From a virus, in IMG/VR virus record IMGVR_UViG_3300033463_000364: DNA of 40,880 nt; one strand, written 5' to 3'. Position 1 is the first letter of the stretch; the number at the start of each line of letters is the position of its first letter. The notes beneath the pieces were generated by a model. The model saw only the letters and a program-made list of their open reading frames with translations. It had not been told where the DNA came from and did no database searches. A program made the translations under genes and the position numbers. Of the stretch, positions 1 through 765 are shown piece by piece.

Positions 1-127
1 GGTCTACAACGTTGACTGCATGGAATATATGCGGACAGTCCCGGACAAGTTCTTTGACCTGGCTATTGTGGATCCGCCGTATGGTGGAGGCTCGAGAGAG
101 AGAGAGAGAGAGAGAGAGAGAGAGAGA
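1..127. repeat. Terminal overlap, copy 1 (identical to 40754-40880)
   Basis: Base-by-base identity read from the sequence. The overlap runs from inside the methyltransferase N-terminus into the GA tract. Confidence 0.95.
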
Positions 128-163
128 GAGAGACGGGCTGCACGGCGGAATTGCAGACTTTGA
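1..163 (+). CDS. DNA methyltransferase N-terminal segment as assembled (phase 2); terminates at TGA 161-163 after the GA tract
   Basis: Codons from position 2: VYNVDCMEYMRTVPDKFFDLAIVDPPYGGGS, 13 R/E codons, then RAARRNCRL and stop. The frame differs from the catalytic C-terminal part. Confidence 0.75.
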   Translation, partial: VYNVDCMEYMRTVPDKFFDLAIVDPPYGGGSRERERERERERERRAARRNCRL

Positions 164-765
164 AAGCAGGAAGCGTTCCCGGTTCGGAGGGTTGTTTGAC
201 AAGTACCATATCTGCGAGCAGGACAGGGGGAACATGGGCGGCGAAGTACAGCCACCAAGGGGGTGTCTTTAGCGGGGCGGATATAAGGCACTGGGATATA
301 GCCCCGAATGCTGAATACTTTCGGGAGCTGGCAAGGGTGAGCAGGAACCAGATTATCTGGGGTGCAAACTACTTCAATATGCCGCCTACCCGGTGCTTTG
401 TGGTGTGGAGGAAGTTATCCATAAGTGAGAACTTCACTATGGCCATGGCTGAGTATGCCTGGACTTCCTTCAATGACAACGCCAAGGTGTTCGAGCATAC
501 GCCGCAAGGGACCCAGGCGGAGCCCAGGATCCATCCGACCCAGAAGCCTGTGGCCTTATATAAATGGCTGCTTGCGAGGTTCGCCAAGTCCGGGCAGAAG
601 ATACTGGACACCCACGTTGGAAGCGGCTCAAGCAGGATAGCCTGCGACGAGATGGGCTTTGACTTTGTGGGGTGCGAGATAGACAAGGTTTATTTTGATT
701 TGCAGGAGAAGAGGTTTGCTGACTGGAAAAAGGGAGCCGGATCTCAGCTGCAATTCGATTTTTAG
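58..765 (+). CDS. DNA methyltransferase C-terminal part (N6-adenine/N4-cytosine type, beta class); phase 1, open from 58 (ORF track 151..765)
   Basis: RTGGTWAAKY, NQIIWGANYF, HPTQKPVALYKWLL and DTHVGSGSS (AdoMet motif I) lie C-terminal to DPPY, the beta-class motif order. It is not in frame with the N-terminus at 20 GA units. Confidence 0.8.
   Translation, partial: PGYCGSAVWWRLERERERERERERETGCTAELQTLKAGSVPGSEGCLTSTISASRTGGTWAAKYSHQGGVFSGADIRHWDIAPNAEYFRELARVSRNQIIWGANYFNMPPTRCFVVWRKLSISENFTMAMAEYAWTSFNDNAKVFEHTPQGTQAEPRIHPTQKPVALYKWLLARFAKSGQKILDTHVGSGSSRIACDEMGFDFVGCEIDKVYFDLQEKRFADWKKGAGSQLQFDF
94..133. repeat. (GA)20 dinucleotide microsatellite inside the methyltransferase gene
   Basis: 40 nt of perfect GA read directly, immediately after the DPPYGGGS codons. 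Confidence 0.95.

Follow-up and report, generated by a model that had tools for sequence, protein, structure and literature searches.

A (GA)20 tract in an orphan DNA methyltransferase gene of a temperate phage as a candidate phase-variable switch

The circular virus assembly IMGVR_UViG_3300033463_000364 (40,880 nucleotides; hereafter “the window”, i.e., the whole stretch of DNA that was analysed) encodes a DNA methyltransferase whose reading frame is set by a perfect run of 20 GA units. This run is probably a hypermutable contingency repeat in an orphan beta-class DNA amino-methyltransferase gene, carried by a temperate phage that also bears a diversity-generating retroelement (DGR), and it very likely acts as a heritable on/off switch, possibly with three states, for the methylation of phage DNA. 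According to this model, slipped-strand mispairing during replication would add or remove GA units, and each step of two nucleotides would shift the N-terminal catalytic part of the enzyme (through the motif DPPYGGGS) to another of the frames lying downstream. Switching within populations at high frequency, its reversibility and a change in the methylation of phage and/or lysogen DNA would be the expected consequences. An earlier note, made from the letters of the window, had described a slippage-prone repeat that sets the frame of the methyltransferase and thus forms a candidate phase-variable switch, a proposal supported by every comparative test that we ran.

The last 127 nt of the window (40754–40880) are identical to its first 127 nt (1–127), leaving a unique circle of 40,753 bp. 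The methyltransferase gene, all features of which lie on the + strand, starts at ATG 40743, and its first part (40743–40880) runs through the assembler's 127-nt copy of 1–127, which ends after 17 GA units. The open reading frame (ORF) that begins there crosses the circle junction, opens with M-S-T-T-V-Y-N-V-D-C, continues to I-V-D-P-P-Y-G-G-G-S (MSTTVYNVDCMEYMRTVPDKFFDLAIVDPPYGGGS) and then reads (RE)n through the tract up to a TGA stop at 161–163. Catalytic motif IV, DPPY (GAT CCG CCG TAT), occupies 71–82, with D28, P29 and P30 invariant in 34 homologues, while the (GA)20 simple sequence repeat lies at 94–133, directly 3' of DPPYGGGS, where its length decides which of three frames follows the N-terminus. 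Apart from it, the window has no simple repeat that is long by Tandem Repeats Finder or by a regular-expression scan, and the second-longest GA run (at 13754) has only five units.

The frame of the N-terminus as assembled, which we call phase Z (1–163; position mod 3 = 2), reads DPPYGGGS, (RE)n and RAARRNCRL before the TGA at 161–163, i.e., 57 aa, and the window copy (n = 20) therefore sits in an OFF phase. Frame X (135–272; position mod 3 = 0) is open from the tract onwards, reads GLHGGIADFESRKRSRFGGLFDKYHICEQDRGNMGGEVQPPRGCL and then stops; the N-terminus leads into it at tract lengths divisible by 3 (18, 21), and it includes a family-consensus motif, RSRFGGLFDKYHI, at 174–212 (motif 1). Frame Y (133–765; position mod 3 = 1; stop at 763–765) holds the linker, the motif RTGGTWAAKY at 220–249 (motif 2) and the whole C-terminal domain; it is open from 58 to 765 and includes HPTQKP (532–549) and DTHVGSGSS, motif I for the binding of S-adenosylmethionine (607–633). 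Finally, a central cassette (85–528), made of the loop and the presumed target-recognition part, is replaced in sister phages, in which the two ends of the gene (up to 84 and from 529) remain homologous.

Frame outcomes were computed from an in silico series of tract lengths (n = 12–29). Whenever n mod 3 = 1, the N-terminus joins frame Y and the product is full length (257 aa for n = 19, 259 aa for n = 22). With 18 or 21 units, it joins frame X (SRFGGLFDKY) and stops at 270–272, after 92 or 94 aa, respectively, and with 17, 20 or 23 units it ends at the TGA that is 161–163 in the window. In terms of the proposed switch, n mod 3 = 1 (19, 22) would be the ON state, yielding an enzyme of about 257 aa whose linker is (RE)n; n mod 3 = 2 (n = 20, the window) would be OFF, frame Z stopping after 57 aa; and n mod 3 = 0 (18, 21) would lead into frame X, with its motif RSRFGG.FDKYHI, and end at a signal resembling the one found in prfB. 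The gene start at 40743, the crossing of the junction, the tract at 94–133 and the frame coordinates given in the earlier note all hold on recomputation, as do the full-length fusion of about 257 aa that it predicted for 19 or 22 units and the entry into the third frame, with a stop at 272, that it predicted for 21; the 61-aa product that it gave for 20 units has to be corrected to 57 aa. Internal initiation of the C-terminal part was considered too and is unlikely, the sole in-frame start being TTG 151, which lacks a ribosome-binding site.

Tract length varies on an identical background. The same phage was retrieved from other assemblies through exact-sequence look-ups of neighbouring window proteins, and one of its contigs (L104; ENA ERZ27257207, contig k141_9194549, 40,888 bp) aligns with the window over 5,207 nt without a single mismatch and with one gap, which corresponds to (GA)17 versus (GA)20. 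If this contig carries a 141-nt MEGAHIT overlap, as we infer, its unique length would be 40,747 bp, i.e., the window circle minus exactly 6 nt. Moreover, the terminal 127-mer of the window ends after exactly 17 GA units. In a de Bruijn graph with k = 127, a branch at that vertex requires reads that exit the tract after 17 units, and the chance of an arbitrary cut falling on a tract-related vertex would be about 40 in 40,753; hence, the source reads probably contained a 17-unit variant alongside the 20-unit one. The Logan contigs of SRR10393135 are 100% identical to the window but broken inside the tract, as predicted by k = 31.

Among relatives, two contigs with flanks 97–99% identical to the window (L001, L111) have 13 units and are in frame, and a third one, about 90% identical (L115), has 11 units and is out of frame. 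The earlier note had suggested looking for the tract, and for its length, in related phages: it is indeed present in both close and more distant ones, with 9–16 units and in all three phases. A DNA pattern that ignores the reading frame (DPPYGGG followed within 10 nt by 7 or more GA units), applied to IMG/VR, JGI metagenomes and Logan, retrieved 16 loci. Pattern scan and neighbour-gene look-ups together yielded, for the three closest lineages, 14 distinct alleles with 10–20 units, of which five are in phase Y, two in phase X and seven in phase Z. Approximately two thirds of the alleles are thus out of frame, with the repeat as their sole lesion, and the natural alleles that are in frame carry (RE)4–5.

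Alleles in the OFF phases appear otherwise intact. In the closest lineages, the C-terminal frame is fully open, over about 160 codons, in all eight OFF alleles (X or Z) that reach the end of the gene, and across all lineages scanned it is open in 10 of the 11 assessable out-of-frame loci, the sole allele with extra stops (L015, from lineage D) lying on a contig of 1.3x coverage. Pairwise ratios of nonsynonymous to synonymous substitution rates (dN/dS) between OFF alleles range from 0.02 to 0.10 in the C-terminal domain (e.g., 0.049 for L005 vs. L013, with dS = 0.53, and 0.045 for L002 vs. the window, with dS = 1.5). Taken together, open C-terminal frames and such low ratios exclude simple pseudogene decay and make consensus error an inadequate explanation.

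To put these alleles in the context of the family, we used an unbiased set of 80 IMG/VR loci (L017–L096), submitted to a tblastn frame analysis and to repeat scoring, of which 74 were assessable; a long repeat was defined as a run of 7 nt or more of one base, or of 5 or more dinucleotide units, between DPPY and QIIWG. Such a repeat occurs in the loop of 23 of the 74 loci. Fifteen of these 23 loci are frame-broken, versus two of the 51 loci without a long repeat (Fisher p = 2.8e-8), and the latter two carry G6 tracts. Repeat density reaches 2.1 per kb in the loop vs. 0.23 per kb elsewhere in these loci, and the frame-break junctions carry G7–G12, C11–C12, A7–A8 or (AG)n. About a quarter of the family members in the 80 loci are frameshifted at loop tracts of the G7–G12, C11–C12 or A7–A8 kinds; the commonest loop repeat is polyG, derived from GGG glycine codons, and GA tracts are in the minority.

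In sister phages (L109, L113, L114, L116, L118), the backbone and the gene upstream are shared and the central region is unrelated, coming from a different methyltransferase body (DPPYGINIGTAAGGGARLCKIGG...). At the 5' end, L109, L113 and L114 match the window at 84 of 84 nt and L118 at about 92%; homology breaks off after position 84, so that the exchange falls at the junction of DPPY and the repeat, and resumes at window position 529, the 3' end being 91–94% identical. The swapped cassette has a polyG tract of its own, which is in frame as G11 or G8 and frameshifted as G10. Phase-variable mod genes shuffle their target-recognition alleles in a similar manner. The comparison of the window with L004 shows 74% identity over the 110 nt before the tract, 97–100% over the 140 nt after it and 70–77% in the rest, a pattern that would fit either a recombining loop cassette or a dual-frame constraint. 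The window also lacks, at 272/273, an in-frame segment of 84 nt (28 aa, ...EGLPAPEIKAHRASDMGGRHRSYKKETG...) that is present in most close relatives between GGVFS and DIRHWD (L001, at 485–561, L004 and L007 carry it), and this variable presence implies that the loop tolerates large changes in length.

Several observations weigh against a switch. The three alleles nearest to the window are all OFF (n = 20 and n = 17 on the identical background, n = 11 at 90% identity), and no ON allele was seen on this exact genome background. L104 and the window may share one source sample, and some of the short or low-coverage contigs used here (e.g., L015, L115) may contain errors. Finally, the proportions of the phases (five Y, two X and seven Z) are near one third each, as would be produced by chance through neutral microsatellite drift in a dispensable gene. 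Neutral instability of this sort, without any switching function, would see the GA-rich stretches encoding ERERE and the GGG glycine stretches expand freely, a seed for the expansion being available in the family consensus, which already encodes VERERE at the tract site, and it would also account for the 15 frame-broken alleles among the 23 with a repeat. Nevertheless, we regard this explanation as rather unlikely. The downstream domains of the OFF alleles evolve with dN/dS of 0.02–0.10 at dS values up to more than 1, and purifying selection in OFF alleles indicates that the gene was functional for much of the history of each lineage. Furthermore, GA, polyG, polyC and polyA tracts recur in the same loop at about nine times the density of the flanks, and even the unrelated cassette swapped into sister phages brings its own tract. 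Such recurrence looks like selection for mutability at this site.

A second aspect of the locus concerns the third frame, which behaves as coding sequence. Among homologues, frame X reads (G)LHGG.ADFE.RKRSRFGG.FDKYHI..DGR.MG.EV. and frame Y reads.C.AAEQT...GSE.GLTSTIS..RTGGTWA.KY. Most of the family reads the first half of this region in X, and the in-frame alleles of the lineages of the window (L001, L003, L007) read it in Y throughout. Frame-specific substitution counts over nine sequences give ratios of nonsynonymous to synonymous differences (pN/pS) of 0.36 in X vs. 1.08 in Y for motif 1 (RSRFGG.F.KYHI, 174–212), and of 1.86 in X vs. 0.13 in Y for motif 2 (RTGGTWA.KY, 220–249). Each motif is thus conserved in its own frame, the two frames being offset by +1, and this holds even in lineages in which no single-ORF allele translates motif 1. 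On the simplest reading, functional protein would be made in the X phase as well as in the Y phase. As for the residues encoded by 134–220, which the earlier note hesitated to assign to phase 1 in active alleles, they are read in that phase in the closest in-frame relatives (L001, L003, L007). Its impression that SRFGGLFDKY looks family-like proved right, since this is a family-consensus motif and frame X is under selection, whereas the second frame change that it proposed to examine near 207–220 did not survive: no slippery or stop signal is conserved there across lineages, between motifs 1 and 2, and 258–273 is the likelier place.

At 258–273, frame X is closed by a putative +1 frameshift signal composed of AGGGGG, a TGT spacer, CTT, TAG and C. 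The +1 signal of prfB consists of a Shine-Dalgarno-like AGGGGG, 3 nt, the slippery CTTT and a stop that is followed by C (PMC12421855). The window has all these elements, with TAG as its stop; were the ribosome to slip by +1 from CTT to TTT, translation would go on in frame Y with F-S-G-A-D-I-R-H-W-D-I-A-P, where the conserved domain begins. In prfB itself, the stop is TGA in more than 99% of genomes. At least 15 distinct related sequences carry this signal at the corresponding position, with TGT, TGC, TAT, TTT or CAT as spacers, TAG, TAA or TGA as stops, and once an A as the following base (TGA A); AGGGGG is replaced by GGGAGG in one related sequence and by ATGGGG in another one. Two loci (L025, L031) carry AGGGGGTATCTTTGAC at the signal, which we take to be the 16-mer of Escherichia coli prfB. 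The sequences bearing the signal were partly selected by the motif itself; the GA-tract scan, which is independent of the motif, finds it in 11 of the 11 assessable loci of lineages A–C. In frame Y, the nucleotides of the signal read [Q/K/T]-G-G-[V/A/I/F]-F-[S/N/D/E], and the third-position A of codon 1, GGG, the third-position C of codon 4, TTT and the AG/AA/GA of the last codon stay fixed despite the amino-acid changes. As far as these sequences go, fixed nucleotides under changing amino acids are the reverse of normal codon evolution.

Upstream of the signal, frame X is open over 41–90 codons back to the repeat, and the N-terminus is assembled in frame X in five alleles: L005, L013, L036 (the last of these with G10), L098 (G11) and L122 ((AG)7). 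The signal is absent where X runs straight into the C-terminal domain (L019, P0047; ...EVPPTNTGADIRHW) and broken in L022 (CTT CGA). In two alleles, it is retained with motif 1 and the C-terminal domain already in one frame (L125, equal to P0005, and L127, equal to P0015), which weighs against a functional frameshift; prfB genes that need no frameshift do not retain their signal. Because both signal loss and signal retention are seen, functional +1 ribosomal frameshifting at 258–273 is a possibility to which we give somewhat less than an even chance. When the prfB-like pattern was searched in 185,579 species genomes, it returned, besides one contig from a metagenome-assembled genome (MAG) of Oscillospiraceae, three chance matches (Bdellovibrionales, Acidobacteriaceae, Neobacillus), which are not stops or methyltransferases.

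Two other contexts of this type deserve mention. About 100 nt after DPPF in L027 and L028, the frame of motif 1 ends with GGGGAC TAT CCC TAG C, and this CCC-stop context could be another site prone to +1 shifts, presumably of the kind known from Listeria phage PSA. In the window, the OFF-phase frame ends with CTT TGA A (158–164), which is a CTTT-stop slippery context from which a +1 slip would enter X; we rejected it as a designed site for a +1 change from Z to X, given that it has no Shine-Dalgarno-like element at 3-nt spacing and is unconserved outside lineage A.

If the signal at 258–273 works, phase X would be a second ON state reached through +1 ribosomal frameshifting, which we hold to be moderately likely; otherwise, it would be a second OFF state. 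With somewhat less than an even chance as well, the locus might be a three-state device in which a slippery repeat at the DNA level is coupled to a recoding signal at the RNA level. In such a device, phase Y would make the enzyme directly, with the RTGGTWAAKY loop, and phase X would yield a second isoform with the RSRFGG.FDKYHI loop, probably at a lower level, so that Z alone would be OFF. This would make the approximately 140 nt behind the repeat truly dual-coding, and the organization would be common to an entire family of methyltransferases from gut and rumen phages, with interchangeable repeats (GA, polyG).

Alternatively, expression could be decided at the level of RNA or of the ribosome, through tRNA re-pairing on (GA)n or polymerase stutter, every allele making some full-length enzyme and the DNA polymorphism being incidental. 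The repeat does permit perfect re-pairing of the AGA/GAG tRNA at +/-2 nt, the family tolerates and may use frameshifting, as the prfB-like site suggests, and the homopolymers of relatives (G8–G12, A7–A8) are of the textbook kind that causes transcriptional slippage. However, we know of no bacterial case in which ribosomes or RNA polymerase slip efficiently on GA runs, no stimulatory element flanks the tract, and the fast length variation in DNA would be left unexplained, all of which makes this possibility very unlikely.

An assembly or sequencing artefact, the true length being in frame and 20 a consensus error in a low-complexity region, is slightly less credible again. PCR-based libraries do produce stutter at dinucleotide repeats, the end of the circular overlap lies within the tract, as if the assembler had met trouble there, and the Logan contigs (k = 31) break at the tract. 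Yet, a 40-nt tract is shorter than both k = 127 and the reads, and is therefore spanned, and the independent assembly gives 17 units, also out of frame, with 5.2 kb of identical flank. Moreover, out-of-frame tracts of 10–14 units, a length easily resolved by short reads, recur in at least 10 independent contigs that were obtained from other samples with other assemblers, and a proportion of two thirds out of frame far exceeds consensus error rates. Last and least probable, a decayed pseudogene whose frameshift happens to sit in the repeat, which the earlier note had named as one case that would refute its proposal should further disruptions exist, would agree with the split into a 57-aa N-terminal ORF and a C-terminal frame without ATG or good ribosome-binding site (nearest start TTG 151), but frame 1 is open over 708 nt (58–765) with all catalytic motifs intact and no second lesion, the C-terminal domain has about 98.6% nucleotide identity to the in-frame allele L001, and the remaining OFF alleles are built alike and are under purifying selection, the allele with extra stops (L015) coming from the 1.3x-coverage contig.

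The proposed phase-variable gene belongs to a well-populated enzyme family. The fused protein matches the Pfam family PF01555 (N6_N4_Mtase) with 56 bits vs. a gathering cut-off of 26.7 (E 7.1e-15), as well as the DNA methyltransferase family phrog_67 (E 1.5e-39), and its nearest relatives of solved structure in the PDB are the beta-class adenine methyltransferases CcrM, DpnA, M.MboIIA and M.RsrI. The order of the motifs is also that of the beta class, motif IV DPPY (71–82) preceding HPTQKP (532–549) and motif I DTHVGSGSS (607–633), and the columns of these three motifs are invariant or nearly so in the alignment of the 34 homologues. DPPY, as opposed to SPPY/F, points to N6-adenine methylation, and this motif is what suggests N6-adenine as the product here. 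More than 8,000 homologues of the methyltransferase exist, many of which encode ERERE at the tract site. In an AlphaFold2 model (mean predicted local distance difference test, pLDDT, of 62), residues 32–98 have a pLDDT below 50; computed from a shallow alignment of 34 sequences, this is weak evidence that the loop after motif IV is not confidently ordered. A long loop modelled with low confidence at this place would be one in which changes of length and frame are tolerated.

We looked for a restriction-enzyme partner by scanning the larger flanking ORFs against PHROG (776–982, 985–1392 and 1389–1895 downstream; 39667–40038 and 40069–40401 upstream), and none of them matched a nuclease or restriction-subunit family, the two small ORFs next to the gene on its upstream side (40398–40616 and 40594–40746) not being part of the scan. 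The methyltransferase is a stand-alone PF01555 enzyme of about 257 aa, which differs from the Type III Mod and Type I HsdM/S architectures, both of which come with a partner. The locus is thus outside the Type III and Type I phasevarion families, yet it would work like a phasevarion switch.

Regarding the phage genome, the window encodes a large terminase, a head-tail adaptor (portal-like), a major head protein, an exonuclease and a replication initiator. An integrase gene (33197–34363) identifies a temperate phage, as the earlier note had supposed. The DGR is complete within 23755–27823: it comprises a reverse transcriptase (phrog_1423, 26768–27823), a template repeat (26542–26638) and a variable repeat (25829–25925), the two repeats being 85% identical with mismatches at template adenines. 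The variable repeat forms the 3' end of a 725-aa ORF, which is probably a receptor-binding or tail protein. Most genes have strong ribosome-binding sites of the AGGAGG type, and the G+C content is 52%. The contig of 1.8 kb that the prfB-like pattern scan had found to be related was binned to an uncultured Oscillospiraceae MAG; based on these ribosome-binding sites and on this contig, the host is probably, on weak grounds, a Shine-Dalgarno-using member of the Bacillota from gut or rumen. A megablast of positions 1–2500 against 50,697 GenBank phage records returned no match, which means that no cultured relative is available, and the DNA pattern made of DPPYGGG and a GA tract had no match in the 185,579 species genomes.

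Three further features of the genome were recorded in passing. In ORF 37146–37880, positions 37178–37397 contain about 37 tandem CGGCTC hexamers, which encode a (GSGSGY)n-like low-complexity N-terminus of a 244-aa protein without any match in PHROG; this array may vary in length, its changes staying in frame. In the replication initiator gene (38972–39724), about three copies of a 22-nt direct repeat (CAAGCAAAACTGGAGCAAAACC) at 39172–39245 look like iterons of a phage origin. Finally, after an 861-aa ORF, a single ORF of 2,626 aa with a GTG start extends over 15853–23733, which is unusually large for a phage of 40.7 kb, and presumably corresponds to a tail, tape-measure or fibre fusion.

Host-adapted bacteria are well known to randomise their epigenome through phase-variable methyltransferases. 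To our knowledge, contingency loci of phages entered the literature only very recently, and the cases described are all homopolymers of lytic model phages. The data presented here suggest a large family of methyltransferases from temperate gut and rumen phages in which the loop behind DPPY has been turned into a mutational switch, with interchangeable repeats and swappable specificity cassettes. If so, virions and lysogens would occur with and without a given methylation mark, which would be a plausible hedge between restriction-modification, which favours methylated DNA, and methylation-dependent restriction, which favours unmethylated DNA, as well as a possible source of epigenetic heterogeneity among lysogens. 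In viromes, such genes will routinely be annotated as split genes or pseudogenes. Should the prfB-like signal work, it would add a rare case of programmed +1 frameshift outside prfB, one that rescues one of the two out-of-frame states; we know of no other programmed +1 frameshift in series with a DNA repeat, so that this would be the first.

In full-text literature searches, we found neither a dinucleotide-repeat switch nor a prfB-like site described for any phage methyltransferase, and the combination of a dual-frame loop with a prfB-like signal is new. With the prfB site, the window shares AGGGGG, the 3-nt spacer, CTTT, the in-frame stop and the C, as well as a +1 frame that continues into a functional domain (PMC12421855). 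In contrast to prfB, to which it is unrelated, the phage gene has a stop that can be TAG, TAA or TGA, its site is reached in only one phase of the upstream repeat, and its frameshift is a predicted one. Since the stop is not almost always TGA, autoregulation by release factor 2 would not apply to the phage gene. Closer to the enzyme itself, PamA of Staphylococcus aureus is an orphan methyltransferase of a prophage that alters the phenotype of its host (cited in PMC13076061). Like PamA, the enzyme studied here would be a phage-borne orphan adenine methyltransferase that could methylate the lysogen chromosome as well as phage DNA; unlike it, PamA has not been reported to be phase-variable, and a 2026 review of prokaryotic methyltransferases lists phage PamA and no phase-variable phage enzyme.

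Hypermutable repeats in phage genes have been claimed as new contingency loci for the homopolymers of T2 and T4 (Gomez, Barrick and Waters, bioRxiv 10.1101/2025.10.21.683753), and polyG tracts occur in the receptor-binding genes of Campylobacter Fletchervirus (Sorensen et al. 2021, cited in the same preprint). The window has in common with these loci a repeat in a phage gene, probably a hypermutable one as well; theirs give reversible frameshifts and heterogeneity, read as bet-hedging against host defence. The Fletchervirus and T2/T4 tracts are homopolymers of 6–11 nt in receptor-binding, glucosyltransferase or rII genes of lytic phages, whereas ours is a 40-nt dinucleotide tract in a methyltransferase gene of a temperate phage, for which the evidence is comparative. 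A closer parallel may be the Bordetella DGR phage BPP-1, with a polyG tract in its methylase gene (Liu et al. 2004, J Bacteriol 186:1503, as cited in bioRxiv 10.1101/2025.10.21.683753): going by that citation, it is likewise a temperate phage with both a DGR and a repeat tract in a DNA methylase gene, differing in the type of repeat and in the methylase, and its tract was noted rather than studied.

The nearest counterparts are nonetheless the phasevarion mod genes of bacteria. In Mycoplasmataceae, Type III mod genes are known to contain GA[5–25] tracts (Atack et al. 2018, PMC5909438), and by the accepted threshold a mod gene counts as phase-variable from GA[5] onwards (PMC5909438), which the (GA)20 of the window far exceeds. 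The differences lie in the enzyme and in the position of the repeat: mod genes are chromosomal and have a Res partner, whereas the window encodes an orphan PF01555 enzyme of about 257 aa on a temperate phage, with its repeat directly after catalytic motif IV and with a conserved third frame that ends in a recoding-like signal. The likenesses are a GA repeat in the 5' part of the ORF of an N6-adenine-type methyltransferase, the same range of lengths (5–25 units), the ON/OFF control through the frame and, finally, alleles that differ in a central, presumably specificity-determining, cassette between conserved ends.

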